Of a DNA stretch of 64,000 nucleotides, positions 40,759 through 62,000 are shown in pieces. This DNA comes from Acidimicrobiia bacterium. GTDB taxonomy: Bacteria; Actinomycetota; Acidimicrobiia; Spongiisociales; Spongiisociaceae. Below the pieces are notes generated by a model. That model ran no database searches, was not told where the DNA came from, and worked only from the letters and a program-made list of their open reading frames with translations. Position numbers and translations under genes: made by a program. Location of the stretch: positions 13,364 through 77,363 of the forward strand of contig JBFGLM010000023.1 in assembly GCA_041576165.1 (NCBI GenBank), in the 5' to 3' direction. The stretch's first letter is position 1, and each line of letters opens with the position of its first letter.

Positions 40759-40952
40759 GACCCTGCCGGCTGCGTGTTGGCATTACATGAGCCCCCCACC
40801 TGCGGTCAGCGGCCACAGCGGGTGTCGTGTGGTCGTCCAGCGGTCTTTGAGCCAGCGGCGTGACGCTCGGGCGATTGAGGGACGGATGGCCGTAGTGGCC
40901 GTGTTGGGCGCAGCGCGACGGTGGATGGTGAATATCCGATGAAAGGAAACCC

Positions 40953-44328: not shown

Positions 44329-44640
44329 TCAGGCCGTAGGCGTGACGATCTGTTCGTTCATGACGTCCCGAAGCATGTCCATCGCGGCGGTGATCTTCTC
44401 CGAGGTGAGTCGATACAGGATCCGCTGGCCGTCCCTCCGGGTGCGGACCAGTCCCTTGTCGCGCAAGATGGCGAGGTGTTGTGACACGTTGGCCTGCGGC
44501 AACTCCAACGCATCGCAGATGTCGCTCACGGCCATCTCGCCGTTGCGGAGAGCATCGATGATCAGCAGCCGTTTGGGATCGGCGAGGCCTTTGCAGACGC
44601 TTGCGTGGAGCCTCATGAGTTCGTCGCGCGTCGCAGACAT
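44329..44640 (-). CDS. ArsR/SmtB family regulator, divergent from the sHdr operon
   Basis: LADPKRLLII..L..GEM.V, ANVSQHLAILR..GLV.TRRDG...YRL. Start moved to ATG 44640. Confidence 0.9.
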   Translation of the reverse strand: MSATRDELMRLHASVCKGLADPKRLLIIDALRNGEMAVSDICDALELPQANVSQHLAILRDKGLVRTRRDGQRILYRLTSEKITAAMDMLRDVMNEQIVTPTA

Positions 44641-44743
44641 GCCGACACTATGGCACATTCCGGGGCGTGCGCAGGAAACGACGCGCGGTGCCTGGCACGA
44701 ACTGTTTGACGGCGGCATGGTTTCACCCCATACTCAGCACCGG

Positions 44744-44775
44744 ACATATTCGTGTATATGCGTACACGCATATGT
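44744..44775. promoter_or_regulatory. 13-6-13 inverted repeat, candidate ArsR operator for the sHdr operon
   Basis: ACATATTCGTGTA-tatgcg-TACACGCATATGT (1 mismatch), AT-rich, about 60 bp upstream of tusA. Confidence 0.65.
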
Positions 44776-44834
44776 GCTCGTGGGTACGCTTGTAGGCAGC
44801 CTCTCGAGGCGGCCGCCATGAGGGAGGAGTAGCG

Positions 44835-45074
44835 GTGTCGGACATCCAAGTGGACAGCGTTCTCGACTGCACGGGCCTGCTCTGCCCGATCCCCGTCGTC
44901 AAGACATCGAAGGCGATCAAGGAGGTCGAAGTCGGCCAGATCCTCCAAATGATCGCCACCGATCCCGGCGCACCCCCCGACATGGAGGCGTGGTGCCGTC
45001 AAACCGGCCACGAAATGGTTGATTCCAAAACCGAAGATGGACAGTTCATTTTCTGGTTCCGCCGCACCGTGTAG
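44835..45074 (+). CDS. tusA: Sulfur carrier TusA
   Basis: LDCTGLLCPIP and ATDPGA..D..AWC..TGH motifs; GGAGGAG RBS. Confidence 0.92.
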   Translation: MSDIQVDSVLDCTGLLCPIPVVKTSKAIKEVEVGQILQMIATDPGAPPDMEAWCRQTGHEMVDSKTEDGQFIFWFRRTV

Positions 45075-45087
45075 CGAAGGAGGCGAT

Positions 45088-45642
45088 GTGACCGCTGCGC
45101 CAGACGAGATGATCAAGCAACTCCACGAGGCGGATGCCGCCGCCGAAGGTCTGCCGAAACAGAAGAGCTTGGCGCTGGTGGCGTCCAAGGGTGGCCTCGA
45201 CGAGGTGTACCCGGTGCTCATCATGGCGTCGACCGCCGGCGCGCTCGGCTGGGACACGCGGGTGTTCTGCACCTTCTACGGCCTCGACATGGTCAACAAG
45301 AAGCGCCAGAAGAAACTCAAGGTATCGGCCACGGGCAACGCCGCCTCGCCGCCGCCGATCAACGGGGTAGAGGTCCGCGTCCCCACCATCCTGGGCATGC
45401 TGCCCGGCATGAACTCGGTCGCGACGTGGATGATGAAGAAGTGGATGAAGGACTCCAACATCCCGAACTACGACGAGTTATTCGATCTGTGCCTGGAGTC
45501 AGGGGTCAAGTTCTACGCGTGTGCCACCACCATGGGTGTCATGAACGTCAACATGGAGGATGTCATCGACGAGGCATCCTGCTTGGGCGCAACTGCCTTC
45601 CTCGACTTCGCAGCGGAGGCCGATCTGGCCTTGTTTGTCTGA
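45088..45642 (+). CDS. dsrE2: DsrE2-like (DsrE/DsrF/DrsH) sulfurtransferase
   Basis: SKG.LD..YP.LIMAST, FCTFYGL, GVKFYACATTM, GATAFL..A.EAD..LF. GTG after AAGGAGG. Confidence 0.82.
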   Translation: MTAAPDEMIKQLHEADAAAEGLPKQKSLALVASKGGLDEVYPVLIMASTAGALGWDTRVFCTFYGLDMVNKKRQKKLKVSATGNAASPPPINGVEVRVPTILGMLPGMNSVATWMMKKWMKDSNIPNYDELFDLCLESGVKFYACATTMGVMNVNMEDVIDEASCLGATAFLDFAAEADLALFV

Positions 45643-45677
45643 GTCATTGCCTGATCCCAGCGTGAGAGGAGCAGCTC

Positions 45678-46046
45678 CTGGAAGGTGATCCCACGGTCGT
45701 CTACGTCCAGACCCACGGCGTCGACGAGCCATCCAAAACCGCAACGCCGTTCTATCTGGCCACTGCTGCGGCCGCGATGGACATGAACGTCTCAATCTAT
45801 TTCACGATGCACGGTGCCACGCTGCTGCGAAAAGGGGCGGGGGAGATCACCGTCAAGGAAGGCGGTGCGCCGCTCGAATCGTTCATCTCCCAGGCGCAGG
45901 ACATGGGTGTCCGGTTCCTGGTCTGCCAACCCTCGCTCGACCTCAACGACCTGGTCATGGAGGACCTGATCGAGGGCGTCGAGATGATCGGCGGAGCCGC
46001 CTTCGCCGATATGGCCGTTTCGGCGGATGCGGTGATCAGCTTCTGA
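45678..46046 (+). CDS. dsrE: DsrE family sulfurtransferase, probable CTG start
   Basis: DsrE pattern VVYVQTHG..E..K.ATPFYLATAAAAMD..VSIYFT..G...LVCQPS continues upstream of the track's ATG 45777. AGAGGAG lies 6 nt before CTG 45678; in-frame TGA at 45663. Confidence 0.8.
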   Translation: MEGDPTVVYVQTHGVDEPSKTATPFYLATAAAAMDMNVSIYFTMHGATLLRKGAGEITVKEGGAPLESFISQAQDMGVRFLVCQPSLDLNDLVMEDLIEGVEMIGGAAFADMAVSADAVISF

Positions 46047-46786
46047 TGTCGGCCGTCGCCCCTCCTGCGCTCTTCACGGCCGATCGGGGGGCGACGATCT
46101 CGCCCAACAGCTACCAAGACGTCGCCTACGAAGAGAAGCTGCGCCTGTGGGAAGAGGTCAAGGCCGATGCTCGGTTCCCGACCTACCTGTACGGCTGCTA
46201 CGAGTGCGGGATCTGTGTGGCGGCGTGCCCCTCTGCCCGCTTCTACGACTTCTCGCCCCGCAAGATCGCGCAGGCAGCCGGGCGCGAGGACGTCGAGTTG
46301 ATCTTCGAGCAGATGAACGACGATGTCTGGAACTGCTCTCAGTGCTTCTCGTGCAACCGCTGTCCCCGCGAGAACTCGCCCGGTGGGCTCATCACCATCC
46401 TGCGTGAGGTCGCCGTCAACAACGGCCTGGCGTCATCCAAGGAGGCGCTGGAGGGGTATTCCCGGATCGTCTACAAGATCATGACCACCGGGACCCAGGT
46501 CTCGCCCGACATGCTCCAGGCCGACGCCTTCCCGGACTGGGGCCCGGGCGTGGTCGACGTGTCCGACAACCTCGACCTGTGGCGCCGCGCCCTGCCCCCA
46601 GAGACCCTTCACACCACCTCCATGAGCTGGGAGGTGGGCCAGGAAACACTCACCGAGCTGTACCTGATCTGGCACTACAGCGGGGTGATGGACATGATCG
46701 CCGAGATCGACGAAGGCCTGCACATGATCATCATCGACGTCATGGAGGAAACCCTCGAGGACGCCGGCTACGACATCGAACTCTGA
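46046..46786 (+). CDS. shdrC1: Sulfur-oxidizing heterodisulfide reductase-like subunit C1
   Basis: CYECGICVAACP and CSQCFSCNRCP 2x[4Fe-4S] motifs; FPDWGP; position in the cluster. Confidence 0.88.
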   Translation: MSAVAPPALFTADRGATISPNSYQDVAYEEKLRLWEEVKADARFPTYLYGCYECGICVAACPSARFYDFSPRKIAQAAGREDVELIFEQMNDDVWNCSQCFSCNRCPRENSPGGLITILREVAVNNGLASSKEALEGYSRIVYKIMTTGTQVSPDMLQADAFPDWGPGVVDVSDNLDLWRRALPPETLHTTSMSWEVGQETLTELYLIWHYSGVMDMIAEIDEGLHMIIIDVMEETLEDAGYDIEL

Positions 46787-46797
46787 TAGGAGAAACG

Positions 46798-47982
46798 ATG
46801 AGCTTCATTCCCATCGATGCGCTGCGGACCAAACCGCTGCCGAAACCCGAGGACGCACCCACCCGGGACGTGCATGAGATTCTCGATGAGCTCGAAGCTG
46901 CCGGCGAACTGATCATCCACCGCGTCCCGGAACCCTACGTGGAGGTCATGACCAAGTACGGGCGGACGAAGAAGATCCCCGAGCAGATGACGTGGCATCA
47001 CAAGTCGTGCGGCCAGTGCGGGCACATCCCGGGCTATTCCACCGCGATCTTCTGGCTGAACCGCGCGTTCGGGTTCGACTACGACGACCCAACTGACCAG
47101 ACGTCGTGCACGGCATGGAACTACTACGCGTCGGCTACGTCGAACGCGGCCGCCCAAGCCGGGGTGGCCATGCGCAACTTCGCGGCCGCATATGACACCG
47201 GGTACTTCCCAGTCATTCACTGCGGCACTTCGTATGGCCACTACAAAGAAGTACGGGAAGAGCTCATTCACCACGACGACCTGCGGGCCCAGGTCCGCGA
47301 CATCATGGCCAAGCTGGGCAAGCCGCTGGTCATGCCGGAAGAGATCGTGCACTATTCGGAGTGGGTGCACGCCATGCGCGGCCGCATCGCCGAGCGCCAG
47401 GTCCTCGATTTCTCCGACATCACGGCCACCGTCCACCCGGCCTGCCATTACTACAAACTGGTGCAGGAAGACGCCATCTACGACCCCGACCTCTACGGCG
47501 GCGAACGTACCGCCACTGTCTCGGCGCTGGTCGAAGCGCTGGGAGCCACCGTCGGGGACTACTCGACGTTCTTCGACTGCTGCGGGTTCGGCTTCCGCCA
47601 CATCTTGGTCGAGCGGGATTTCACGCGGTCCTTCGCCACCCAACGCAAGATCGAGGTCATGAAGGAAGAGGCCAACCCCGACGTCGTGCTCACCCACGAC
47701 ACGGGCTGCGTGACCACACTCGACAAGAGCCAGTTCGCCGCCCAGGCCCACGAGAAGAACGTAGGGATTCCCGTCATGTCGGACGCCCAGTTCGCTGCCC
47801 TGGCCATGGGCGCCCATCCCTACCGGGTGTGCCAGCTCCACTGGCACACCACCGACTACACCCCGCTGCTGGAGAAGATGGGCATCGACTGGCAGGCGGC
47901 CTGGGCCGAGTTCGAGGAGGACATCGGGCGGCTCCAGCGCAACGAGATCGAGTACTTGAGCTGGGAGGACGTTGGTGTCTGA
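46798..47982 (+). CDS. shdrB1: sHdr subunit B1 (CCG domains)
   Basis: HKSCGQCGHIPGY, DQTSCTAWNY, HCGTS, HPACHY, DCCGFGFRH, HDTGC. ATG after AGGAGA. Confidence 0.9.
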   Translation: MSFIPIDALRTKPLPKPEDAPTRDVHEILDELEAAGELIIHRVPEPYVEVMTKYGRTKKIPEQMTWHHKSCGQCGHIPGYSTAIFWLNRAFGFDYDDPTDQTSCTAWNYYASATSNAAAQAGVAMRNFAAAYDTGYFPVIHCGTSYGHYKEVREELIHHDDLRAQVRDIMAKLGKPLVMPEEIVHYSEWVHAMRGRIAERQVLDFSDITATVHPACHYYKLVQEDAIYDPDLYGGERTATVSALVEALGATVGDYSTFFDCCGFGFRHILVERDFTRSFATQRKIEVMKEEANPDVVLTHDTGCVTTLDKSQFAAQAHEKNVGIPVMSDAQFAALAMGAHPYRVCQLHWHTTDYTPLLEKMGIDWQAAWAEFEEDIGRLQRNEIEYLSWEDVGV

Positions 47983-49033
47983 ACGGGTCCTCATCATCGG
48001 CGGTGGACCGGCCGGGCTCGAAGCGGCTCGCCTGGCCGCGCAGCTCGGTGCGCGGGTGACGGTCATCGAGAAGGACGGGGCCCTGGGCGGCCGGCCGATC
48101 TCGGAGAGTTACGCCGCGCTCACTCACGGGTTCCAGTCGGCGGAGGAATTGACCAACAGCCTGATCGACGCCGCCACCCGCCAGCCGGGAGTCGAGGTCC
48201 GGCTCGGCTCGCAGGTCACTGCCGTGGGTGGATCCGCCGGGTCGTTCGACGTCACGGTCAGCTCCGACGGCGGCGACGCCCAGATGGACGCCGGCGCCAT
48301 CATCGTGGCCACGGGCTTCACGCACTTCGATCCCGGGCGTGAGACCCAGCAGTACGGGTACTACGAGTTCCCGGATGTGATCGGCATCCACGACGCGGAG
48401 AAGATGCTGAAGGATCATGCGTTCGTGACCCCCTCCACCGGCAAGGCGCCGGAACGGGTCGCCTTCATCCAGTGTGTCGGCTCGCGCGACCGCCAGATCG
48501 GCAACGAGTACTGCTCGAAGGTGTGCTGCGGGATCTCGTCCAAGCAAGCGATCGAAGTCCGCCAGCAGGTCCCCGAATCGCGCGTGTTCATCTTCTACAT
48601 CGACATGCGGATGTACGGCTACTGGGAGAACGAGATCTACTGGCCGGCGCAGGAGCAGCATCGCGTCAACTACGTGAAAGGCATCGTCACCGAGATTCTG
48701 TCCAAAAATGGCCGCCTGCTCATACGAGGCGAAGACACCACCATGGGCCGGCCCATGGAGGTCCCGATGGACGTGGTGGTGCTGGCGGTCGGGATGGAAC
48801 CGTCGCAGGGCACCCGCCAAATGGCCGAGGTTCTCGGCCTGGCGACCAACAAGTACGGGTTCATCGAGACTGTGCACGACACCCTCGATACGGTGTCGAC
48901 CGCGGCTCCCGGCATCTACGTGTGCGGGGCGGCCACCGGCCCCGCCGATCTCGACGATACGATCTCCTCGGCCGGTGCCGCCGCCGGTAAAGCGGTCGCC
49001 TACCTGCGCGCAGCAGTGGGAGCGCCCGCTTGA
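47975..49033 (+). CDS. shdrA: sHdr subunit A (short FAD/[4Fe-4S] HdrA)
   Basis: IGGGPAG, ATGF, QCVGSRDR, YCSKVCC, FYIDMR, GIYVCG motifs; lacks the ferredoxin inserts of methanogen HdrA. Confidence 0.9.
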   Translation: MSERVLIIGGGPAGLEAARLAAQLGARVTVIEKDGALGGRPISESYAALTHGFQSAEELTNSLIDAATRQPGVEVRLGSQVTAVGGSAGSFDVTVSSDGGDAQMDAGAIIVATGFTHFDPGRETQQYGYYEFPDVIGIHDAEKMLKDHAFVTPSTGKAPERVAFIQCVGSRDRQIGNEYCSKVCCGISSKQAIEVRQQVPESRVFIFYIDMRMYGYWENEIYWPAQEQHRVNYVKGIVTEILSKNGRLLIRGEDTTMGRPMEVPMDVVVLAVGMEPSQGTRQMAEVLGLATNKYGFIETVHDTLDTVSTAAPGIYVCGAATGPADLDDTISSAGAAAGKAVAYLRAAVGAPA

Positions 49034-49812
49034 GCGGAGCTTCCTTTTACTCCGGGCAGGTTGTCGACACTCCCACTGCCAGGGAGTTCACAACCCTCGC
49101 CCTGGAGCGGGTGAGCCGGGAGGAGCTGAGCGACATCGCCGGATTGCTCGAGCGCAAGGCCGCCGCGTTCCAGACGATTCTCGACCCTTCCCGCCTCGAC
49201 CGGATGTCCGAAGCCGACGCCAGGGCGTTGCTGCGTTCCGTGTTCGCAGCTCGCCGCCGCCATCGGGTGATTCTCGACACCGTGACCCTGGACGGGTTCA
49301 TCCGGCTGACCCGGGATCTGCTGACCGGCCCCGGGGAGCCGGGGGAGCGGCTGGAACGGTTCCACGCGACGATCGCCGCCATCGGACGAGACGTCCATCC
49401 CCAGGTCGGTTTCGACCTCGGCAGCAGCCTGCTCCATTTCTCCGATCCCGACCGGCATTGGCTGTGGACCCGATGGATGTGGGACCCGGACGCCGAGACC
49501 GGATCGCTGCCGCTGATTGTGACCGAAGAGGTCGATCTGGACGGCCCCGATGTTGCCGAGACCTACCGGCGGATCGGGATCGCCATGGCCTTCATCAACG
49601 ACGTGGGTGAGGCTGCCGAATTCCGACCCCAGGGTCACGGCGTCTTCGACACCGACGTGTTCCTCGCGACCGTGTACGCCATTTACATGTACACGACCCT
49701 GCGGATGCGCATGACCCAGGAGTTCAACCAGGTCGTGCCGCAGCTGCCGGAACTGCTGCGCCGTCTGCTCGGAGTCCATCGATCGCCACTTCTCGAGGAG
49801 CAGCCCGCGTGA
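49030..49812 (+). CDS. shdrH: sHdrH (conserved hypothetical subunit between shdrA and shdrC2)
   Basis: Canonical position; LLHF.DPDRHWLWTRWMWD....TG.LPL and C-terminal RRLLGV. Confidence 0.78.
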   Translation: MSGASFYSGQVVDTPTAREFTTLALERVSREELSDIAGLLERKAAAFQTILDPSRLDRMSEADARALLRSVFAARRRHRVILDTVTLDGFIRLTRDLLTGPGEPGERLERFHATIAAIGRDVHPQVGFDLGSSLLHFSDPDRHWLWTRWMWDPDAETGSLPLIVTEEVDLDGPDVAETYRRIGIAMAFINDVGEAAEFRPQGHGVFDTDVFLATVYAIYMYTTLRMRMTQEFNQVVPQLPELLRRLLGVHRSPLLEEQPA

Positions 49813-51101
49813 CTCGCCGCGCCAACCCCAAGGTCGAGCCCGAACGGGTGCGAGAACTGGAGCACGTCGTTGTCGACGACATGGACATCTCCGGTCACTG
49901 GAACCGGATGTTCGAGCAGCGAGTCATCTTCGACTACGACCCCCACCAGATCGACCGGGTAGCGGATCTGCCCGGCGGCGAGTCGATGGCTTGGTGCTAT
50001 CAGTGCGGCCAGTGTGTGGCGGTGTGTCCGGTCGACCATGTCGGCAGCTACGGACCGCGCAAGATCTACCGGGACCTGCAGGTGGGGATGGATCTGTTCA
50101 CCGACCCGCAGCTGTGGCTGTGCACGACGTGTGGCAACTGCCTCCGGGTCTGTCCCAAAGAGGTCGACTTCCTCCAGATCATGCCGGCAGTGCGCAAAGA
50201 AGCGGTCCTCGAAGGCGACGTCCCGGCCGAGCTTCAGGACGTATTCGAGAAGACCGCCCGGTACGGCAACCCGTTGGGCAAGAATCCCAAACGCCGGGCA
50301 GCCTGGACCAGGGGACTGGACGTCGAGGTCCCGGTGATCTCCGAAGTCGGGCGCAAGGTCGACGTGCTGTGGTGGGTCAGCGACTACCCGGCCTATCACC
50401 CGCGCGGCATCGACGCCTCCAAAGCGCTGGCCCGGGTCTTCACCCACCTCGGAATCGACTTCGCGATTCTCGGCGCAGAGGAGCGGCACGACGGCGACTC
50501 GATGCTGCGGGCCGGTGAGTCGGGCCTGTTCGAGATGCTGGCCGACCACAACATCGAGGTACTGAACCAGTACGAGTTCGACGTTCTGCTGACCACAGAC
50601 CCCCATGCCTACAACGCGTTCCTGCACGAGTATCCGGCCCGGGGCGGCACCTACAACGTCGTGCATTACTCGACATTCCTGGCCGACCGCCTGGACGAGA
50701 TGGGCCTCTCCGAGGACGTCACCCGCAAGATCACGTTCCACGACCCGTGCTACCTCGGCCGTCACAACGGCGAGTACGAAGCTCCCCGCCGGCTGATCGA
50801 AGCGTTGCCGGGCGGCGATTTCGTCGAGATGTGGAGGGTGCGGGAGAACGGTTACTGCTGTGGCGGCGGTGGAGGTGGCATGTGGCTCGACGGCCTCGCG
50901 GCGGAGCACCAGTCGATGCGGCTCTCGGAGAAGCGGGTGCTGGAAGCTATCGAGACCGGTGCCGACACGCTGTGCGTCGTGTGTCCCTACGAGGTATCCC
51001 GCTTCGAGGATGCCGTCAAGTCGACTAACAACGACGGGGCGCTGGAAGTCCTCGATGTTGCCGAGTTGCTGGCCGCGGCCCTGGGTTTGACGGACGAGTG
51101 A
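49809..51101 (+). CDS. shdrB3: Fused sHdrC2-B2 (sHdrB3 of type II sHdr)
   Basis: DISGHWNRMFEQR N-terminus, CYQCGQCVAVCP and CTTCGNCLRVCP, then CCG domains (HDPCYLGR, CCGGGGG). Confidence 0.82.
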   Translation: MTRRANPKVEPERVRELEHVVVDDMDISGHWNRMFEQRVIFDYDPHQIDRVADLPGGESMAWCYQCGQCVAVCPVDHVGSYGPRKIYRDLQVGMDLFTDPQLWLCTTCGNCLRVCPKEVDFLQIMPAVRKEAVLEGDVPAELQDVFEKTARYGNPLGKNPKRRAAWTRGLDVEVPVISEVGRKVDVLWWVSDYPAYHPRGIDASKALARVFTHLGIDFAILGAEERHDGDSMLRAGESGLFEMLADHNIEVLNQYEFDVLLTTDPHAYNAFLHEYPARGGTYNVVHYSTFLADRLDEMGLSEDVTRKITFHDPCYLGRHNGEYEAPRRLIEALPGGDFVEMWRVRENGYCCGGGGGGMWLDGLAAEHQSMRLSEKRVLEAIETGADTLCVVCPYEVSRFEDAVKSTNNDGALEVLDVAELLAAALGLTDE

Positions 51102-51141
51102 CTGAATACACGCCGGGGCATAGAAGGAGGAGCAGCACAGG

Positions 51142-51912
51142 ATGGAAATAGCCGTCGTGTTACGGGCCGTGCCCGATCCAGTCGAAGAACTCGAGCTGAA
51201 TGACGACGCCACCGATCTGGACCGCGAGTTCTTGGGATTTGTGCTCAACGAATTCGACGACCACGCCCTGGAAGAAGCCCTCCTCATCAAGGAGGAGGTG
51301 GGCGGTTCGATCACCGTGTACGCCGCCGGCACCGCCGACGAAGTCGATCAGATGCTGCACACTGCAGTCGCCAAAGGCGCCGACAAAGCCGTCAAACTGG
51401 GCGACGACTTAGGGGCGCTCGATGCCCACGCCCAGGCCGAAATGTTGGTGGCGGCGATGGACGGGACGGCCTTCGACCTGGTCCTGTGTGGCGTGCAGGC
51501 GGCGGACGAACTGGACGGCCAGGTAGCCATGCTGATCGCCGCCCGGCTGGGCCGGCCCCACGCCTCGGTGGTTGTGTCGGCTGTTCCGACGGGCGACGGC
51601 CTCACCGTGACGAAAGAATTCTGGGGCGGCATCACCGCCGACTACAAGGTGGAGCTGCCCGCGGTTCTCGGCATCCAGGCCGCCCGCCAGGCTCCCCGCT
51701 ACGTGGCCGTGAGCCGGATCCGCCAGGCGCAGGAATCTGGGGCACTGGAGGAGCGCGACGTTGCGGCTCCCCAATCACCGGCCCGCGTCCGGATCACCGA
51801 GGTTCGCATCCCCGAATCGGGGGCGGGGGCCGAGATGATCGAAGGCGACGAAACCGCGGCGGCAGAGAAGATCCTCGAGCTGCTCAAGGCGGCCGGAGTG
51901 GGAGGTCTGTGA
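51142..51912 (+). CDS. etfB: Electron transfer flavoprotein beta subunit
   Basis: VPD, NEFD..ALEEAL, GAD.A, DLVLCG.QA.D...GQV, PRY motifs. Confidence 0.92.
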   Translation: MEIAVVLRAVPDPVEELELNDDATDLDREFLGFVLNEFDDHALEEALLIKEEVGGSITVYAAGTADEVDQMLHTAVAKGADKAVKLGDDLGALDAHAQAEMLVAAMDGTAFDLVLCGVQAADELDGQVAMLIAARLGRPHASVVVSAVPTGDGLTVTKEFWGGITADYKVELPAVLGIQAARQAPRYVAVSRIRQAQESGALEERDVAAPQSPARVRITEVRIPESGAGAEMIEGDETAAAEKILELLKAAGVGGL

Positions 51913-52868
51913 TGGGCAACGTTCTGGTCATCGCCGAACACCTCCAGGGCAACTTCACCGATGCCACGTACGAGGCGCTGGCGGTCGCCCGCACCGTGGC
52001 CGGCCAAACCGGTGGCACCGTCGAGGCGGCCCTGGTCGGCGCAGATGTCACAGGTCTGGCCGGCGAGCTGGGTGGCGCCGACCGAATTCTGGTCGCCGAC
52101 CACAGCGGCCTGGCGGAGTTCGTTCCCACCGCCCACGCGGCGGCCTTTGCCGAAATCGTGAACGAGACCGAGCCGCAAATCGTTCTGGTGCCGTACACGT
52201 CCACCGGCATGGACGTCGCCTCCCACCTCTCCGTCCAGTGCGACTACCCGCTGGTGTCGTACTGCCAGTCGGTCGACGCCGACGGCGGCCTGTCGGCCAC
52301 CACCCAGTTGTATGCCGGAAAGTTGGAGGCAGATGTCGAGGTCGCAGGTGAGAGAGCCGTTTTCGCCTTGCTGGCCGGCGCCGGTGATGCCGAGGCCGGT
52401 CGGACCGGGGGAGCCGGTGAGGTCGTCAAGGTCACCCTCACAGACCCTCCCGCTGCGATGAAACTGATCGGGCTCGCTCAGCCGGACGCAGGCGACATCG
52501 ACATCACCGCCCAGGACGTGTTGGTGGTGATCGGGCGCGGCATCGAGTCGGAGGACAACATCGCCGAGGCGGTGGAAGTGGCGGATGCCCTCGGGGGAGC
52601 CGTAGCCGCCTCCCGGCCTATTGTCGACCAGGGATGGCTGCCCAAGACCCGCCAGGTCGGCAAATCCGGCCTCACCGTGAAACCCAAGGTGTACCTGGCG
52701 CTGGGCGTCAGTGGAGCGCCGGAGCACATCGAGGGAATGCGAGACGCCTCGACCATCATCGCGGTCAACACCGACCCACGGGCTCCGATCTTCGGAGTGG
52801 CCCACTACGGCTGGGTCGGCGACCTGTTCGACCTGCTGCCCGAACTCGCCGACCTACTCGACAGCTGA
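51912..52868 (+). CDS. etfA: Electron transfer flavoprotein alpha subunit
   Basis: IGRGI, ASRP.VD.GW, QVGKSG.TVKPK.Y.A.GVSGA.EH..GM, IAVNTD..APIF. ATG overlaps the etfB stop. Confidence 0.93.
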   Translation: MGNVLVIAEHLQGNFTDATYEALAVARTVAGQTGGTVEAALVGADVTGLAGELGGADRILVADHSGLAEFVPTAHAAAFAEIVNETEPQIVLVPYTSTGMDVASHLSVQCDYPLVSYCQSVDADGGLSATTQLYAGKLEADVEVAGERAVFALLAGAGDAEAGRTGGAGEVVKVTLTDPPAAMKLIGLAQPDAGDIDITAQDVLVVIGRGIESEDNIAEAVEVADALGGAVAASRPIVDQGWLPKTRQVGKSGLTVKPKVYLALGVSGAPEHIEGMRDASTIIAVNTDPRAPIFGVAHYGWVGDLFDLLPELADLLDS

Positions 52869-52873
52869 CCGCC

Positions 52874-54970: not shown

Positions 54971-55466
54971 ATCGGTCCCGGTCTCGATCGGTCGCCAGGA
55001 GCCTCCCGCGCGGTCGGACGTCACCGAAGTCACCGCCCCGGGTGCCGCCATCGGCCACGCCGCAGCCGCCATGCTGGGCCACCTGGCGGCGGTGCTGGAC
55101 CGGGAAGACCGGCTGGAATCAGGATCGGGTGAATGGCTGGCCGGGTTCGCGGCGGACTCAGAAGCCGGACGGGCAGCCGTGCTACAGAGCGTGCTCCGGG
55201 CGCTGGGACTGGCAAGCGATCCGACCAACTTCGCCATCCTCACGGTGCTGGCGGGCGGAAACCCGCAGCGAATGGACCAGCTCGTAGCAGCTACCGGATT
55301 GACCGAGCTGAGCGTGGCCGAACGGGTATCCGACCTCGTGTCAGCCGGGCTCGCCACCAAGCTGCCGAGCGCGAATCAGGTGGTTGGTACCCAGGCGGGG
55401 GCTGCGATCGTGGCGCTGGTGACTGAAGCGGTGGAGGCCGGCGCCCGTGAGCTGGGCGCCAGATGA
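54963..55466 (+). CDS. Hypothetical protein with a C-terminal ArsR-like winged helix
   Basis: ASDPTNFAILTVL...QLVAATGLTELSVAERVSDLVSAGL; overlaps both neighbours. Confidence 0.62.
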   Translation: MGESVPVSIGRQEPPARSDVTEVTAPGAAIGHAAAAMLGHLAAVLDREDRLESGSGEWLAGFAADSEAGRAAVLQSVLRALGLASDPTNFAILTVLAGGNPQRMDQLVAATGLTELSVAERVSDLVSAGLATKLPSANQVVGTQAGAAIVALVTEAVEAGARELGAR

Positions 55467-55750
55467 TGCGCTGCCCATTCTGCGAGATGTCCGGACCCAG
55501 ACCGGAACTGCACGCCCACCTCACCGACACGCACGCCGACCAGGTCCAGACCTGGGAGTCGGGCAGCGGCCGGCGGTTCTACGAGCTCCAGTGCCCCAAC
55601 TGCGATGACTCCTACCGCCGGGAGGTCAAGCCGCGGCTGCGCGACCCCGGGTTTCTCGACGAGTACAGCCGGGAGATCCGGGTCGTGGCCTTCGACATGT
55701 TTCTGTATCACCTAGCCGCCGCACACGAGGAGGAAGAAGCAGGTGCCTGA
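55463..55750 (+). CDS. Small Cys/His zinc-finger-like protein, possibly sHdrI
   Basis: CPFC..LHAHL...H, CPNC, FDMFLYHL...H; immediately upstream of lbpA. Confidence 0.65.
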   Translation: MMRCPFCEMSGPRPELHAHLTDTHADQVQTWESGSGRRFYELQCPNCDDSYRREVKPRLRDPGFLDEYSREIRVVAFDMFLYHLAAAHEEEEAGA

Positions 55751-56186
55751 GGTTCGTGGCTGTCAGATCCCCGATGACCTGTTGTACTGGCCCGAGAAAC
55801 ATGTGTGGGCCCGGTTGAACGATGATGGATCCGTGACTGTGGGTGTGACCGACGTCGCCCAGAACCTGGCGCACAACATCATCTCGGCGATGCCCAAGGC
55901 GGCCGGCCGGGGCACCAAGAAAGGACGCAGTCTCGGCACCATCGAGAGCAGCAAATGGGTGGGGCCGGTCACGTCCCCTCTCACTGGGGAGATCTCCGAG
56001 ACAAACCCGGCGCTCGCCACCGACCCGGGGATCATCAATCGTGACCCCTACGGCGAAGGGTGGTTTGTCAAGCTCCAGCCGTCGGAGTGGGAGACCGAAG
56101 GCTCCGAGTTGGTCACCGGCGCCGACGGGGTCGCCGCGTACGAAACGTTTCTCGAGGCAGAAGGGATCAGCTGCGGCGAGGAATGA
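55743..56186 (+). CDS. lbpA: Lipoate-binding protein LbpA (GcvH-like), copy 1
   Basis: TIESSKWVGP lipoyl-Lys motif, INRDPYGEGW, and terminal Cys residues (GCQIP; ISC). Confidence 0.88.
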   Translation: MPEVRGCQIPDDLLYWPEKHVWARLNDDGSVTVGVTDVAQNLAHNIISAMPKAAGRGTKKGRSLGTIESSKWVGPVTSPLTGEISETNPALATDPGIINRDPYGEGWFVKLQPSEWETEGSELVTGADGVAAYETFLEAEGISCGEE

Positions 56187-56638
56187 GCATGCAGGTCTAC
56201 CACGGCTGCCACGTCCCCGACGACCGCCTCTATGACATAGAAGGCGATCTGTGGGTCCGCCTGGAGGGGGACCTAGCGCGCCTGGGGATGACCGACATCG
56301 CCCAGACCCGGATGGGGAAGATGGTCTCGATTCACTTCAAACGACCGGGCCGCAAGGTCAAGCCCGGTGGATCGGTCGCCACAGTCGAAAGCTCGAAATG
56401 GGTCGGACCCATCCACACTCCATTCGGTGGCGAAATCGTCGAACCGAACGAATCGGCTTTCGCGGCGGACATTCTGATCGCCAACCGCGATCCCTATGAG
56501 GTCGGCTGGATCACCATCATCCGCCCCGAAGACGTCACCCAGCCGCATCGACCCCTGCTCCGTGGCAACGACGCCTGGGAGGCGTACCGGGACCGGATCG
56601 ACGACCTCGAGATCAGGTGTTATCGATGCGCCGACTGA
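56183..56638 (+). CDS. lbpA: Lipoate-binding protein LbpA, copy 2
   Basis: TVESSKWVGP, NRDPYEVGW, N-terminal GCHVP and C-terminal CYRC. Confidence 0.88.
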   Translation: MSMQVYHGCHVPDDRLYDIEGDLWVRLEGDLARLGMTDIAQTRMGKMVSIHFKRPGRKVKPGGSVATVESSKWVGPIHTPFGGEIVEPNESAFAADILIANRDPYEVGWITIIRPEDVTQPHRPLLRGNDAWEAYRDRIDDLEIRCYRCAD

Positions 56639-57645
56639 GGGAACTACGGGTGATCGATTTCGGCGCGGTTTCACCGCTCCGGAGCCAGACGCTGTGGCAC
56701 GCCATTGCCCGGGGCGTCTCTCACGGGGCTCCACCGACGCTGTCCTTCATGCGGCCGCAGCTGCCCTACGTGTCGATCGGCTTCCACCGACACATCGAAG
56801 AGGTCGACCGCGCCTGGTGCAGGGCACAGGCGCTGCCCGTGTTCCGGCGCATGGTCGGTGGCGGGCCGGTGTACCTCGACGACGGCCAGTACTTCTTTCA
56901 GCTGACAGTCCCGGCCGCGCAGGCTCCGGCCATACGGGCCCGGGCAGTTGGGATGATGCTGGCGCCCGCGGTCGAGGCGTTTCGGGCGGCGGGGGTGGTC
57001 GACGCAGCACTCGACGGCCGCAACGAGGTGGTGGTGGGGGACCAGAAGATATGCGGGCACGGCGCCGGGCAAATCGACGAGGCGGTCATCGTGGTCGGGA
57101 ACCTGATCACCCGCTTCGACCACCGGTCCGCCGCCCGCGTGCTGGCGGCACCCGACCGCTGCGCAAGAGCCGAACTCGAATACATGATGCGCCGCTACGT
57201 ACGGCCCACCCGGATTGCGAACGACCACTTCCAGGAGGCGGCCGTCTCGGCCTACGCCGCATCCTTGGACGCCACCCCGCACCAGGGCGAGCTCGGCACG
57301 GTAGAGATCGAGCGACTGGCCGAACTCGACGCCCGATTCGTGACCGAGACCTGGATCAGTGACTCTCCGCCGCGCCGGTCCGAGCCGTGGACCGTCAAGA
57401 TCAAGTCCGGCATATGGGTGGCATCGGAACATGACGCGCGCACCCGGGTCACGCTCAGTGCGGTGGAAGGCCGGGTGTTCCGAATACGGATCGACGACGC
57501 CCGCCTCAACGGTCGGGCCGAGCGGCTTGAACAGGGGTTCGTCGGCGTGCCGGTGGGGAAACTGCGCGAGTGGGGCCGTGCGCTGGCGGTCCCGGAGAAT
57601 GTTCCCGATCTACTGTCACGACTGGAAGGATCCACACCACGATGA
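56626..57645 (+). CDS. Lipoate:protein ligase of sulfur oxidizers, sLpl(AB)-like
   Basis: LRSQ..WHA, PYVSIGFH, RRMVGGGPVYLD..Q, NEV....KICG.G, plus a C-terminal accessory domain (VKIKSG). Confidence 0.85.
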   Translation: MRRLRELRVIDFGAVSPLRSQTLWHAIARGVSHGAPPTLSFMRPQLPYVSIGFHRHIEEVDRAWCRAQALPVFRRMVGGGPVYLDDGQYFFQLTVPAAQAPAIRARAVGMMLAPAVEAFRAAGVVDAALDGRNEVVVGDQKICGHGAGQIDEAVIVVGNLITRFDHRSAARVLAAPDRCARAELEYMMRRYVRPTRIANDHFQEAAVSAYAASLDATPHQGELGTVEIERLAELDARFVTETWISDSPPRRSEPWTVKIKSGIWVASEHDARTRVTLSAVEGRVFRIRIDDARLNGRAERLEQGFVGVPVGKLREWGRALAVPENVPDLLSRLEGSTPR

Positions 57646-58112
57646 CAGACAGCCAACTGATGATCGAAGTTGTCTCCGGATTCCCGGTCCACATCGGATA
57701 CGGCTACGACCTGACCAATCACATGTGGGTCGACACGTTCGCTAACGGCAAGCTGCGGATCGGCATGGACGCACTGGGCTTGGAGACGTCGGGCACGCTG
57801 GCCCAGCTCGTGTTCCACGATCAAGGAGCCGATATCAAACGGGGCGCACCGTTCGGAACGCTCGAGGCGGAGAAGTTCGTCGGACCGCTGGTTGCGCCGG
57901 TATCGGGTCGCGTGATTGCTACGAACACCTCGGCTATGACCAACCCGGGCATCGTCCAGGCCGACCCATACGGCGGCGGGTGGATGATCGATGTCGAGCC
58001 GTCCGACCTCGAGACAGAGATGGCGATGCTGATTAAGGGGCGCGACGCCATCGTCCCGGCTTTCGAGCAGAAGGTGAAGCAGTACCGCCTCGAAGGGGTG
58101 CTGGCGGAATGA
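57642..58112 (+). CDS. Third GcvH/LbpA-like lipoyl carrier, cysteine-free
   Basis: HMWV, RIGMD, FGTLEAEKFVGP..APVSG, DPYGGGW; no Cys from ATG 57642 to the stop. Confidence 0.85.
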   Translation: MTDSQLMIEVVSGFPVHIGYGYDLTNHMWVDTFANGKLRIGMDALGLETSGTLAQLVFHDQGADIKRGAPFGTLEAEKFVGPLVAPVSGRVIATNTSAMTNPGIVQADPYGGGWMIDVEPSDLETEMAMLIKGRDAIVPAFEQKVKQYRLEGVLAE

Positions 58113-59092
58113 CGGTCGGCGCCGATCAAACCGCGGGGTTCTCGATCCGTCAGGCGAACTTCGACGGGGTCATGGAGTTCTTTGCCCCGGGGCTCAAGCG
58201 GTGGGAAACCGCCGAATGGAAGCCGGCCAGCCCGCGCCGTTTCTTGCCCATCTCGGTGACGGGTGGGGCGTGTGCGCTCCAGTGTGATCACTGTCAGGCC
58301 AAGGTCCTCAAGGGCATGGTGTCGGTCAAAGCGGGGGAGAACCTCTACGAGTTGGCCGAACGGATGAGGTCGCAGGGAACCGACGGCATTCTCGTCTCGG
58401 GTGGGTCCACCAAGAGCGGGGGAGTGCCGCTGCTGTTCCACCTCGACCACATCGCCCGCGTCAGGGAAGAGCTGGGCATGAAGGTGGTGGTCCACTCCGG
58501 CGTGGTCTCGCCGCCGATCGCGGAGGGTCTGGCCGAGGTGGGCGTCGACGGTGTGATGCTCGACATCATCGGGTCCGACGACACGATCCACGACGTCTAC
58601 CACCTGGACCTGACGACCGCCGATTTCGAGGAGTCGTTGCGGCTGCTGGCGGAGCACGACCTGCGGATCATTCCCCACATCGTGTTGGGCATGCATTACG
58701 GGGAATTCCGCGGGGAGCATTACGCCTTGGAGATGATTGGCCGCTATCCGGTCTCGACCCTGATCATCGTGATCCTGGTTCCGCTGGTGGGCACACCCAT
58801 GGAACACATTCCGCCGCCGCCGCTCGACCAATGCGTCGGTTTCTTCGAAACGGCCCGCCACGCGCTGCCCGACACGAAGATCAACCTGGGGTGTGGTCGC
58901 CCGATGGGGGAGATGAAGAAGGACCTCGATTGGGCCGCCATCGACTATGGGCTGAACGGGATTGCCTACCCGGCCGACGGCGCCATCGCCTACGCCGAGT
59001 CACGAGGTCTGCGGCCGGAACTCTACGAATACTGCTGTTCGCTGACCTGGGTCGGTGATGGGGCCAGCTACCAATCCGTGCAGATCGGCTGA
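58109..59092 (+). CDS. lipS1: Radical SAM lipoyl synthase LipS1-like
   Basis: ISVTG..CALQCDHC, LVSGGS...GGVPL, PHIV.G, LGCGRP, C-terminal YCCS. Assignment of S1 versus S2 is from recalled motifs. Confidence 0.8.
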   Translation: MTVGADQTAGFSIRQANFDGVMEFFAPGLKRWETAEWKPASPRRFLPISVTGGACALQCDHCQAKVLKGMVSVKAGENLYELAERMRSQGTDGILVSGGSTKSGGVPLLFHLDHIARVREELGMKVVVHSGVVSPPIAEGLAEVGVDGVMLDIIGSDDTIHDVYHLDLTTADFEESLRLLAEHDLRIIPHIVLGMHYGEFRGEHYALEMIGRYPVSTLIIVILVPLVGTPMEHIPPPPLDQCVGFFETARHALPDTKINLGCGRPMGEMKKDLDWAAIDYGLNGIAYPADGAIAYAESRGLRPELYEYCCSLTWVGDGASYQSVQIG

Positions 59093-59102
59093 GGAGGCCC
59101 GG

Positions 59103-60224
59103 ATGAGCCAATGGAGATATCTCACAGACGATTATCAAGGCGCCGCCCGAGGCCTGGCATTGGATGAGGCCCTGATGGAACGCTACAACCGGGACGCCCT
59201 CGAGTCGGAGCCTACCCTCCGGCTGTACACGTACGAAAGTCACGCCGCGCTGTGCGGCAGGTTTCAGCACATCGCCGCCGAAATCGATCTGGATGCGTGT
59301 CGGGCGAACGGGACCAGGTTCAACCGCCGGCCCACTGGCGGCGGCGCGATCGTAATGGGCGAAGGCCAGCTCGGAGTCGCCGTCGTCACCCGGGCTCCCG
59401 CCGCCGACCGGCCCAAGGCGCTGTTGCTCCGTTTCTCGGAGGGGATCGTGGCCGGACTGGCCGAACTGGGAATCGAGGCGGGGTTCGGGGGTAAGAACGA
59501 CCTCAAGGTGGGCCGCAAGAAGATCGCAGGCCTCGGCCTCTACCTCGATGGACGCGGGGGTCTGCTGTTTCACGCCAGCGTGCTGGCCGATCTCGACATC
59601 CCGTTCATGCTCGAGGTCCTGTCCACCCCGGTATCCAAGCTGGGAGACCAGGCGGTTGAGCTGGTGCAGGAGCGGGTGACGACGGTCAGCAATGAGACCG
59701 GCGGCGGATGGACCGGCCGGTCACTGCGGCCGGTGATCGAGGCAGGGTTCGCCAAAGCGCTCGAGATCGACCTCCAAACCGGGCGTCCGTCGCCAGACGA
59801 ACTGGAGTCGGCAGATCACCTCGTCGCGACGAAATACAACAGAGACGAGTGGATCTTCCAGCGCACTCCGCAGCCGGACGCGACCGCCACCGCCACGATC
59901 AAGACACCGGGCGGGCGGATACGGCTCTACCTGGCGCTGTCCGGCGCCACCATCAAGAGTGCGCTATTCACCGGCGACTTCAATCAGATACCGGAGCCAC
60001 TCGCCGAGTTCGAGAACCGGCTGAAGTGGGCCAGCCTCGACTGCCGCGAGATCGAACAGATCGCGGCCGCCACCCTTGGGGGCGGGACCGACCTAGGGAT
60101 CGAGCCGGACGAATTGGTCACTGCAGTGTTGAGCGCCGGGGAGCGGGCGGCGGGCGCCGAGATAGCTATGCCGGCCCGCACTGGGTCCTGCTACTTCCCC
60201 GAAGCCGAGGGGGTTACGACGTGA
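59103..60224 (+). CDS. Second lipoate:protein ligase/octanoyltransferase (LplA/LipM family, with C-terminal domain)
   Basis: LALDEAL, PTLRLY, RRPTGGGA, NDL....KKIAG, KTPGG.I...FTGDF. ATG after GAGGAGG. Confidence 0.85.
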   Translation: MSQWRYLTDDYQGAARGLALDEALMERYNRDALESEPTLRLYTYESHAALCGRFQHIAAEIDLDACRANGTRFNRRPTGGGAIVMGEGQLGVAVVTRAPAADRPKALLLRFSEGIVAGLAELGIEAGFGGKNDLKVGRKKIAGLGLYLDGRGGLLFHASVLADLDIPFMLEVLSTPVSKLGDQAVELVQERVTTVSNETGGGWTGRSLRPVIEAGFAKALEIDLQTGRPSPDELESADHLVATKYNRDEWIFQRTPQPDATATATIKTPGGRIRLYLALSGATIKSALFTGDFNQIPEPLAEFENRLKWASLDCREIEQIAAATLGGGTDLGIEPDELVTAVLSAGERAAGAEIAMPARTGSCYFPEAEGVTT

Positions 60225-61342
60225 CGGTGACGCCGCTGCGGAACCCAGAACGGCGAGCCGCCGAAGAGGCTTCCGGTGATCGCCATGTCAGCCCCGACTG
60301 GGTTCGTATATCCACCGCCAGCGCCATCGCCCTCCGATTCCGTTCGGGCCGCTTCGAGCGACCGTTCGATTTTGGTGGGATCAATCTGCTGCTGAACTAC
60401 ACGTCGGGTTGCCGCTCCGACTGCTCCTACTGCGGCTTGGCCCGGACCCGGCCGGGAGAGTACGAGGACAAGTCCTTCATCCGGGTGGAGTGGCCGCTGG
60501 TCGAAACGGACGAGTTGGTGGACCGGATGGCCAAATACGAGTCGACGCTGACCCGCTTGTGCATCTCGATGGTCACCCACGGCCGCGCCTACCGGGATAC
60601 GTTCGACATCACCGAGCGGATCCGCGCCAAAGTCGCGACGCCGCTCTCCATCCTGGTTGCGCCCCCGACCCTGAACCGCGCTCGGCTGGAGACATTCAGC
60701 GAGCTGGGAGTGGACATGATCGGGATCGGGCTCGACGCCGTCACCGAGGACCTGTTCCGGCGCCACCGCACCGATGTTCCGTCCGGCGGTGGGCTCGATT
60801 GGGCGAAATACTGGGAGGTGGTCAACGACGCCCGCGATCTGTTCGGGCCGTGGAAGGTCAACTGCCACACCTTGGTCGGCCTGGGGGAGACCGACTACGA
60901 CATGATCGACCTTTTCATCCGGTTGTGCGATCGGGAGATATTCCCCTACCTCTTCTGCTTCAACCCGGAGCCTGACTCGCGGCTGGGCAACGAACCGAAG
61001 GCGCCGATTGCCCGCTGGCGGCGTATCCAGCTGGCCAAGTATCTCATCGAGACGGAAGGCTTCCGCTGGGACCGCTTCGCATTCGACGACGCCGGGGCGC
61101 TGACCGAAATCCGGGGCGCTTCGCTGGATGAAACAGACGTGGTCGAGCTGGCGGTCGACAGCGGCATCCCGTTCATCACCAACGGCTGCCCGGGGCCTAG
61201 CGGAGAGCCGGGCTGTACGCGCCCCTACGGGTCGTACCGGCCATCGGAGCCCATGCGCGATTACCCGTTCCCACCCACCGCAGACGATCTACGCGTGATC
61301 CGGTCGGAAATGGCACTCGACGAGGTCTATGTCCGAGGCTGA
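60221..61342 (+). CDS. lipS2: Radical SAM lipoyl synthase LipS2-like
   Basis: LLLNY..GCRSDCSYCGLAR, FIRVEWP, RLCISM, GLGET, QLAKYL, T.GCPG...GCTRPYG. Confidence 0.8.
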   Translation: MTVTPLRNPERRAAEEASGDRHVSPDWVRISTASAIALRFRSGRFERPFDFGGINLLLNYTSGCRSDCSYCGLARTRPGEYEDKSFIRVEWPLVETDELVDRMAKYESTLTRLCISMVTHGRAYRDTFDITERIRAKVATPLSILVAPPTLNRARLETFSELGVDMIGIGLDAVTEDLFRRHRTDVPSGGGLDWAKYWEVVNDARDLFGPWKVNCHTLVGLGETDYDMIDLFIRLCDREIFPYLFCFNPEPDSRLGNEPKAPIARWRRIQLAKYLIETEGFRWDRFAFDDAGALTEIRGASLDETDVVELAVDSGIPFITNGCPGPSGEPGCTRPYGSYRPSEPMRDYPFPPTADDLRVIRSEMALDEVYVRG

Positions 61343-62000
61343 GGCCGGGATGCTCATCGTGGCGGACGACCGTCTGATCGTCCGCAATGCCATCCGGGCC
61401 GCCGAGGAGCTCGGGTTGCCGGTTTCGACCACCGCACCGGCCCCGGGAGCTCCACCGACGGTGGTCATCGTCGATCTGGACACGCCACAAGCAACGCAGG
61501 TCGTGGCAGATGCCAAGGGCCGCTCACCGACCACCATGGTGGTCGGTGTGCTCAGTCAGCCATCGGGGGAGATGTGGACCCAAGCGGAGGACCGGGGATG
61601 TGACGTCGTCACGTCCCGCGGAGCGTTGCGCAAAACGCTGCTCAGCAAGGTTCCGCCCTGGTTGGAATCACCCGGCGGGCGGCGGCTCCGCCTGTTCCCG
61701 GTGGATGACATCGCCGGACGCCTGGGGCTGGTGATGCGGATCGAGGACAGCCCGGTCGGGCCGCTAGCTGTGTTTCACATCGCCGGCGAGATCCTGGCCG
61801 TAGAGGACCACTGTCCTCATGCCGGGGCAACTCTGTCACAAGGCCCGATCAGCCTCGACGATGGGATCGTCACCTGTCCCGAGCACGGGAGCCGGTTCGA
61901 CACGCGCACCGGCGAACGCGTGCGGGGCCCGGCGGATGATCCGATCCGCACGTTCCGGGTGACAGTCGAGGACGGTTCGGCCTACCTGCACGTGTTGTGA
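61329..62000 (+). CDS. Receiver-like domain fused to a Rieske [2Fe-2S] ferredoxin
   Basis: N-terminal LIVADD...VIVDLD...GCDVV; C-terminal CPHAG..LS.G and VTCPEHGSRFD.RTG...GPA. Overlaps lipS2 by 14 bp. Confidence 0.8.
   Translation: MSEAEAGMLIVADDRLIVRNAIRAAEELGLPVSTTAPAPGAPPTVVIVDLDTPQATQVVADAKGRSPTTMVVGVLSQPSGEMWTQAEDRGCDVVTSRGALRKTLLSKVPPWLESPGGRRLRLFPVDDIAGRLGLVMRIEDSPVGPLAVFHIAGEILAVEDHCPHAGATLSQGPISLDDGIVTCPEHGSRFDTRTGERVRGPADDPIRTFRVTVEDGSAYLHVL

Follow-up and report, generated by a model that had tools for sequence, protein, structure and literature searches.

A probable type II sHdr-LbpA operon, including lipoate assembly genes, in an uncultured Acidimicrobiia bacterium

The DNA analyzed here, a window of 64,000 nucleotides (nt) from an uncultured Acidimicrobiia bacterium, carries between positions 44835 and 62000 of its forward strand a string of 21 tightly packed, co-directional genes. 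With a probability of about 85%, this string would be a functional type II sHdr-LbpA operon for the cytoplasmic oxidation of protein-bound sulfane sulfur, provided with its own lipoate assembly genes. What is observed directly is the gene content, the gene order, the sequence motifs, the fold of two accessory proteins, and the co-occurrence of genes among genomes. According to Pfam and NCBIfam domain scans of the translated frames, the order is tusA-dsrE2-dsrE-C1-B1-A-H-B3-etfB-etfA-emo-wHTH-Znf-lbpA-lbpA-LplX-Lbp3-lipS1-ligase-lipS2-receiver/Rieske, being wHTH a winged helix-turn-helix protein and Znf a small zinc protein. With the best-judged starts, neighboring genes overlap at 13 of the 20 junctions and are never more than 40 nt apart. 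An initial annotation, made from the sequence alone, had described about 20 co-directional and mostly overlapping genes in this same order, in agreement with our results. Its span of 44329 to 62000 holds for 44835-62000, and the part at 44329-44718 corresponds to a divergent regulator gene of the reverse strand that it had not named. All the genes described below are on the forward strand, except for this regulator.

Type II sHdr systems are defined by the presence of shdrC1B1AHB3 and etfAB in one syntenic cluster (PMC11094781, PMC11582611), where sHdrB3 is a C2/B2 fusion binding only one noncubane cluster (PMC11094781); here and below, published statements come from the accessible parts of each source. 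In the window, shdrC1, B1, A, H, and B3 are consecutive genes (46046-51101). sHdrA (47972-49033, 353 residues), a flavoprotein with a cysteine cluster, matches over its full length the solved sHdrA from Hyphomicrobium denitrificans (PDB code: 6tjr), with an E-value of 7.6e-78 and residues 5-345 aligned to residues 3-340 of 349. In contrast, methanogen HdrAs, of 640-670 residues, align only to residues 102-344, with 5e-57 or weaker. Because of this difference between a full-length and a partial match, the Hdr subunits of the window are, judged from their sequences, of the sHdr type and not of the methanogen type, as the initial annotation had proposed. Also, the 353 residues of sHdrA agree with the short form of this subunit in type II clusters, a flavoprotein with one Fe-S cluster, in comparison with the long methanogen HdrA. 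sHdrC1 (46046-46786, 246 residues) matches Fer4 families, with HdrC models under the cut-off, and contains two CxxCxxCxxxC motifs (residues 51-61 and 97-106). sHdrB1 (46798-47982, 394 residues) matches Pfam CCG (2e-8) and an HdrB model (9.6e-36, under the cut-off), and shares 76-87% identity with its counterparts in related loci. The protein in the sHdrH position (49030-49812, 260 residues) has no Pfam or NCBIfam match and is kept at this position in nearly all the related loci. sHdrB3 (49809-51101, 430 residues), which combines Fer4 and CCG domains, contains only one complete CCG motif besides its two CxxCxxCxxxC motifs (C314...C350C351...C389xxC392; one CCG stretch in Pfam), as expected for a fusion with one noncubane site.

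The etfAB genes, with emo adjacent as is usual, are also in the cluster (51142-54970). EtfB (51142-51912, 256 residues) matches Pfam ETF with 6.1e-23, and EtfA (51912-52868, 318 residues) matches Pfam ETF and ETF_alpha. The EMO-type membrane Fe-S oxidoreductase (52874-54970, 698 residues) has Fer4 and CCG domains, two CxxCxxCxxxC motifs, one CCG motif, and 5-6 hydrophobic segments within residues 13-255. A full-length EMO paralogue with 33% identity (contig C1, ~203264-205279) and a second EtfAB pair (contig C34, ~39569-41277) are found elsewhere in the genome and presumably constitute the housekeeping route from electron transfer flavoprotein to quinone; therefore, the operon copies would be the dedicated ones. 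By its gene content and motifs, the region 44835-62000 is thus a type II sHdr cluster as defined in the literature, and the type II cluster with lipoate assembly proposed in the initial annotation is borne out by the domains, the 6tjr match, the sHdrB3 with a single CCG motif, and the presence of etfBA and EMO.

The operon is headed by three putative sulfur carriers. TusA (44835-45074, 79 residues; Pfam TusA 3.2e-23) contains a Cys17-Pro18 motif, and it is followed by a DsrE2-type sulfur transferase (45088-45642, 184 residues; Pfam DrsE_2 5.2e-37; NCBIfam SulfCarrDsrE2 155 bits, under the cut-off of 210) and by a DsrE3-like sulfur transferase of ~122 residues (45678-46046; Pfam DsrE 5.4e-12) with one cysteine and a probable CTG start. 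For this last gene, no ATG, GTG, or TTG occurs before 45777 in the region 45666-45780. At position 45678, the window has CTG where the homologues have TTG, GTG, or ATG, and a ribosome-binding site (GAGAGGAG) lies ahead. Since the starts of the homologues align there and this site precedes it, translation most likely begins at CTG 45678. No rhodanese or importer gene is present in the cluster.

We infer from the literature on its relatives how this system converts sulfur, which way its electrons flow, and how it is regulated. Persulfide sulfur would pass through TusA, DsrE2, and the DsrE3-type protein to the lipoate arm of LbpA and the sHdr complex (C1, B1, A, H, and B3), which would oxidize it to sulfite. 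According to the published proposal, the dedicated EtfBA would take up the electrons and deliver them to EMO, the membrane Fe-S protein, from which they would reach menaquinone. The two cysteine-bearing LbpA proteins would be lipoylated by the ligase of the operon together with the radical S-adenosylmethionine enzymes LipS2 and LipS1, apart from the housekeeping genes of the LipA/LipB type. Finally, an AT-rich palindrome is probably the site at which the divergent ArsR-type protein keeps the operon repressed until a sulfur signal arrives.

The lipoyl carriers and the enzymes for their modification occupy the second half of the string. Conserved cysteines near the N and C termini are a hallmark of LbpA (10.64898/2026.10.01.755906), and they are present in copy 1 (55743-56186, 147 residues; Pfam GCV_H 2.4e-32), with Cys7 and Cys144, and in copy 2 (56183-56638, 151 residues; Pfam GCV_H 1e-26), with Cys9, Cys146, and Cys149. 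A third GcvH-like carrier, named here Lbp3 (57642-58112, 156 residues; Pfam GCV_H 2.2e-22), has no cysteine and for this reason is not classed as LbpA. The three carriers share the GcvH fold and the lipoyl lysine, being Lys71 in the sequence ESSKWVGP of copy 1, Lys72 in copy 2, and Lys78 in Lbp3. Moreover, Lys78 is kept in 18 of 19 Lbp3 sequences, and the same fraction (18/19) is devoid of cysteine. Behind the carriers, LipS1 (58109-59092, 327 residues; NCBIfam LipS1 1e-67) and LipS2 (60221-61342, 373 residues; NCBIfam LipS2 4.7e-53) present the CxxxCxxC motif at residues 55 and 64, respectively. Each of these models is the best NCBIfam model for its protein, with 228.6 bits for LipS1 (cut-off 230) and 180.5 bits for LipS2 (cut-off 270). 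Between both genes is a lipoate:protein ligase in the position of sLpl(AB) (59103-60224, 373 residues), which has a catalytic and a C-terminal accessory domain (LplA-B_cat 7.3e-35 and Lip_prot_lig_C), with matches to solved ligases down to 1.7e-23. This arrangement corresponds to the published order lipS1-lpl-lipS2 (PMC10332631). Within the cluster, to which the search for lipT was confined, no gene for a flavin adenine dinucleotide oxidoreductase was found, lipT included; this gene is reported nearby in about half of the bacteria with LipS1/S2.

A second, divergent protein of the LplA family, named here LplX, is encoded between lbpA copy 2 and the gene of the third carrier (56650-57645, 331 residues; Pfam LplA-B_cat 1.5e-21). 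All 16 orthologues share its RRxxGGGxVYxD motif and its Lys133, and its match to solved lipoate ligases is weak (5.8e-9). Ligases that are closer to LplX than to the ligase flanked by the lipS genes also come after lbpA2 in clusters devoid of lipS genes, and therefore two classes of ligase are a regular trait of such clusters. LplX might instead be a transferase of the LipM/LipL type, but against this reading only ligase models were found in NCBIfam (E ≤ 1), the motifs are LplA-like, and the cysteine beside Lys133 is not conserved. In a second actinobacterial sHdrA clade (L039, L051, L072, L078, L082, L092, and L093), the genes for a ligase-like protein, a cysteine-free carrier, LipS1, a ligase, and LipS2 lie between shdrB3 and etfB and not behind lbpA. 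The presence of this five-gene module at another site indicates that it moves as a unit.

Housekeeping lipoate genes are found on other contigs of the genome, namely a canonical GcvH (C15), a LipA beside a LipB-like gene (C85), and a further gene of the ligase family (C14). Therefore, the lipoylation set of the operon would be a second, dedicated pathway, as in the sHdr organisms that have been studied. On contig C85 (10873-12441), LipA and a catalytic domain of the LipB/LplA family lie in one open frame of 680 residues, which may encode an octanoyltransferase fused to a lipoyl synthase, or may comprise two genes that no stop codon separates.

The divergent gene (44329-44718, reverse strand, 129 residues) encodes an ArsR/SmtB-type regulator (Pfam HTH_5 1e-17), a candidate sHdrR-like repressor, which is kept next to tusA in most of the Acidimicrobiia loci. 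Its best NCBIfam model is HTH_metalloreg (92 bits, over the cut-off), and the second-best is BigR (68 bits, under the cut-off of 155). The repressors SqrR, SoxR, BigR, and sHdrR share two sensor cysteines (Cys50 and Cys116 of H. denitrificans SoxR; PMC10451225). The protein of the window resembles them in the ArsR/SmtB winged helix, in the divergent site beside the operon, and in the first sensor cysteine (Cys42, in the motif CKGLADPKRL). However, it differs in having no cysteine in its C-terminal half: beyond residue 68, neither this regulator nor any of the Actinomycetota and Chloroflexota orthologues aligned with it has one, and a second cysteine, C68, is conserved in only part of the Acidimicrobiia. 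Because the second sensor cysteine is missing, an intramolecular polysulfide bridge cannot be assumed for this regulator. The intergenic region between the regulator and tusA contains an AT-rich palindrome (44744-44775, unstranded) with 13-nt arms that are 92% complementary, which is a candidate operator. Also, the heptamer ATAT[TG]CG or its complement occurs three times in this region. Across 17 related loci (L006, L011, L025, L030, and L032 among them), its density in the corresponding intergenic region is 6.5 per kb versus 0.08 per kb elsewhere, for a heptamer that was picked after viewing the same sequences in which it was tested.

Several points weigh against a functional sulfur-oxidizing operon in this bacterium. 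The NCBIfam scores of HdrA/B/C, DsrE2, LipS1, and LipS2 are all under the cut-off, these models having been made for other subfamilies; the regulator has only the first of the two sensor cysteines; the cluster is devoid of a rhodanese; no SoxB above the cut-off was found in the genome; no RNA run is listed for the stretch (46046-55750 checked); the genome bin is 7.5% contaminated and roughly double the size of the five other family members sampled (2.3-2.8 Mb); and no experiment on a type II system was found cited in the accessible literature. Some of these observations would fit a role of the machinery other than dissimilatory oxidation of inorganic sulfur, such as the disposal of persulfides from organic sulfur in a marine heterotroph, or a reductive role in which electrons from the electron transfer flavoprotein go to lipoate or protein disulfides. 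This explanation, which we consider unlikely, would be in accordance with the lack of a SoxB above the cut-off, with a cluster devoid of rhodanese and importer, with a RuBisCO that was not found in the genome, and with a type II system for which the accessible part of PMC11094781 gives no biochemical test so far. However, TusA, DsrE2, and DsrE3 carriers head the operon as in the proven type I systems, and the four sulfite-oxidase-family molybdoenzyme domains matched in the genome, which also encodes a YeeE-like transporter, could remove the product. Moreover, the cultured organisms with type II clusters are known sulfur oxidizers (PMC11094781).

The source bin comprises 5.1 Mb in 161 contigs and is 96.5% complete, with the window located on a 77-kb contig. 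Given its size, it may represent a member of the family with a large genome or a partly mixed bin. If the contig had been mis-binned, the cluster would come from another organism, and the statements on heterotrophy would not apply to it. The contamination and the size of the bin would be compatible with such an origin, as would the fact that none of the five other family members sampled carries sHdrA. Nonetheless, the GC content of the contig (0.644) is close to the bin mean (0.653), its tetranucleotide position is inside the bin range, and the nearest sHdrA relatives, with 77-81% identity, are all metagenome-assembled genomes (MAGs) of Acidimicrobiia anyway, which makes mis-binning very improbable. 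The best ~30 relatives of sHdrA are Acidimicrobiia and Actinomycetota MAGs (68-81% identity). A quick maximum-likelihood tree of 89 sHdrA rows places the window among 35 rows (29 Actinomycetota and 6 unlabelled) that form a clade with a support of 99% in the Shimodaira-Hasegawa-like approximate likelihood ratio test. The Acidimicrobiia-like host suggested in the initial annotation is thus retained. Its description as a heterotroph is consistent with the lack of a detected RuBisCO large subunit in a genome that is 96.5% complete. With this one marker of autotrophy as the basis, a heterotroph able to oxidize sulfur is plausible.

The integrity of the genes argues against a decaying or silent relic, which seems hardly credible here. 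All 22 frames (the string and the divergent regulator) are open and intact, the catalytic and cluster-binding motifs are preserved, the gene overlaps are tight, and the core subunits are 60-87% identical to those of the relatives; the lack of a listed RNA run, the one observation that could be read in favor of a relic, is evidence neither way. The G+C content of the whole window is 64-66%, and because of this, long spurious open reading frames are common; the coding frames of the string are marked by a high G+C content at third codon positions (GC3) and a low one at second positions. For LplX, the true frame is 56650 (or 56617)-57645. The open reading frame at 56496-57362, with a low GC3, had been a candidate for this ligase and was rejected on that value. 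Scans for sigma-70 promoters and terminators gave counts that are not above those of shuffled sequences.

Gene order is conserved across 80 related loci, covering 10 kb on each side of sHdrA. From the regulator on the reverse strand and tusA through both lbpA genes, it recurs in most of the Acidimicrobiia loci recovered. The order is identical from dsrE to the Rieske gene in one public genome (G086) and through lipS2 in another (G384). In addition, near-identical contigs (95-100% likeness) cover the stretch in runs of three studies, whose labels are marine, soil, and marine; two of the runs cover 30 of 30 bins, and the other covers 27 of 30. One of these runs may be the source sample. Because the order recurs in dozens of public loci and near-identical contigs come from three studies, the arrangement is not a product of chance or assembly.

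A comparison with the type II sHdr-LbpA clusters in the accessible descriptions (PMC11094781, PMC11582611) reveals the same core genes in one string with lbpA and lipS1-lpl-lipS2 behind. TusA/DsrE2/DsrE3-type carriers are in front in both cases, a set flagged for most of the Acidimicrobiia rows of Table S1 (PMC11094781). In contrast to these clusters, the window has a wHTH/zinc pair between emo and lbpA, a second divergent ligase with a cysteine-free third GcvH-like protein, and a pseudo-receiver/Rieske fusion where lipT is often found. No mention of these extra genes was found in the accessible type II literature. The 'hdr cluster II' of Sulfobacillus, the first drawing of a type II system, likewise has etfBA and a Fer4/CCG membrane protein in the string, and the EMO of the window corresponds to its longer hdrC, with 6 transmembrane helices (PMC4378227). 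With the type I systems of H. denitrificans and Aquifex (shdrC1B1AHC2B2), the window shares the full-length sHdrA, C1, B1, and H, as well as LbpA, with its lipoyl lysine and its cysteines on either side, and a ligase dedicated to the system together with the probable LipS1/S2. On the other hand, C2 and B2 are fused as B3 with one CCG motif in the window, the electrons of type II systems are proposed to exit via EtfAB/EMO, and the regulator is devoid of the second conserved cysteine.

The first gene of the wHTH/zinc pair (54963-55466) encodes a winged-helix, ArsR-like protein of 167 residues without cysteine, with a weak match to MarR_2 (E 0.009), atlas neighbors that carry HTH_5, and R50, L51, and E52 invariant in 36 sequences. 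The second (55463-55750) encodes a small zinc protein of 95 residues with two C2H2-like sites; its AlphaFold2 model is confident, with a predicted local distance difference test score (pLDDT) of 89.9. In 35 sequences, C4, H17, H19, H24, C44, C47, H83, and H88 are invariant, and C7 is nearly so. Foldseek found no match to this model in the PDB at E ≤ 0.001, and the best Z among 48,161 chains in VIA-align was 4.7, none reaching 5; this lack of a match to a solved fold is no proof of a new fold.

Co-occurrence was evaluated in 401 sampled genomes of the class Acidimicrobiia, this genome included. sHdrA is present in 12 of them, this one among the carriers, and the zinc-protein profile matches exactly these 12, with one copy each; the carriers are not independent relatives, yet they span at least six family codes. 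Of these 12 genomes, 10 are matched strongly by the wHTH profile (E ≤ 1e-24), the matching gene lying in every case immediately upstream of the zinc gene. The same profile has seven weak partial matches elsewhere among the 401 genomes, as is typical of a generic helix-turn-helix. Among loci reaching at least 1.5 kb past emo, the pair is present in 16 of 19 labelled Actinomycetota and in 11 of 14 labelled Chloroflexota, and it is absent from those of Bacteroidota, Planctomycetota, Calditrichota, and Rokubacteria. The accessible literature yielded no description of a zinc protein with sHdr. One joint reading, which we put forward as possible rather than probable, is that the type II sHdr system of Acidimicrobiia and Chloroflexota includes an undescribed obligatory pair of a cysteine-free wHTH and a zinc protein, which would act as a zinc/thiol-based sulfur sensor or as a factor for the assembly or docking of sHdr and LbpA. 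Alongside the pair there may be an sHdr-specific pseudo-receiver/Rieske protein and a lipoylation relay with two ligases and three carriers.

The last gene of the string (61329-62000, 223 residues) encodes a fusion of a pseudo-receiver and a Rieske [2Fe-2S] ferredoxin (Pfam Rieske 3.7e-13; CPH...CPEH motif). In the AlphaFold2 model (pLDDT 91.3), residues 118-223 resemble Rieske ferredoxins (Z 16.8) and residues 4-114 resemble receiver domains (Z 14.8, DrrB), which supports the receiver/Rieske label given previously. The Rieske half is like the ferredoxins of toluene, naphthalene, and carbazole dioxygenases (Z 16.5-16.8), with their CxH...CxxH motif, and the N-terminal half is like CheY-like receiver domains (Z 12-14.8); unlike both groups, the protein of the window joins the two in a single chain. 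Although the receiver fold matches, only 6 of 12 orthologues have Asp at the phospho-acceptor position, and the last strand is not followed by a conserved Lys. For this reason, the N-terminal half is considered a pseudo-receiver and not a working phospho-receiver. Full-length matches occur in 6 of the 401 genomes, all of them sHdrA carriers. In other loci, the gene adjoins the regulator and is not behind lipS2, and therefore it has no fixed link to the lipoyl synthases. The fusion is seen solely in Actinomycetota-type loci. Hence, the lineage specificity that the initial annotation ascribed to several accessory genes would hold only for this fusion and not for the wHTH/zinc pair, which Chloroflexota loci also carry.

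The high novelty attributed initially to the cluster does not stand. Type II sHdr has been reported in 130 assemblies, mostly of Chloroflexota, Actinobacteriota, and Bacillota (Tanabe et al. 2024, PMC11094781). Moreover, Table S1 of this work, as far as accessible, includes 14 sHdr rows of Acidimicrobiia, Acidimicrobium ferrooxidans, Ferrimicrobium acidiphilum, and Ferrithrix thermotolerans among them, and 13 of the 14 are flagged as type II, in a table derived from a PDF whose columns may be off. Together with the order in G086, this means that the arrangement is already described for the lineage at the level of a survey, the very circumstance under which the initial annotation had expected its novelty to fall. 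No paper treating Acidimicrobiia sHdr clusters in its main text was found in the literature. The cluster is then a further example of an already described type II system and not a new system. For the bookkeeping of the sulfur cycle, it is useful to add one more marine/sediment Acidimicrobiia genome to the probable sulfur-oxidizing heterotrophs, which is unsurprising. More useful is the short list of conserved and unstudied partners of a poorly characterized type II system, namely the zinc/wHTH pair, the receiver-Rieske fusion, the second ligase with the cysteine-free carrier, and the one-cysteine regulator with its candidate operator. Apparently undescribed, the zinc protein, the pseudo-receiver/Rieske fusion, the one-cysteine regulator, and the second ligase with the third carrier look new, and these partners could be tested in cultured carriers such as Acidimicrobium and Ferrimicrobium.

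Beyond the operon, a gene for a protein-L-isoaspartate O-methyltransferase, a CAAX protease, and an MMPL gene are conserved beside the cluster in none of the related loci. The methyltransferase gene (62043-62828, forward strand) begins 43 nt downstream of the operon, and its product carries an Ala/Pro-rich N-terminal extension of 55 residues.

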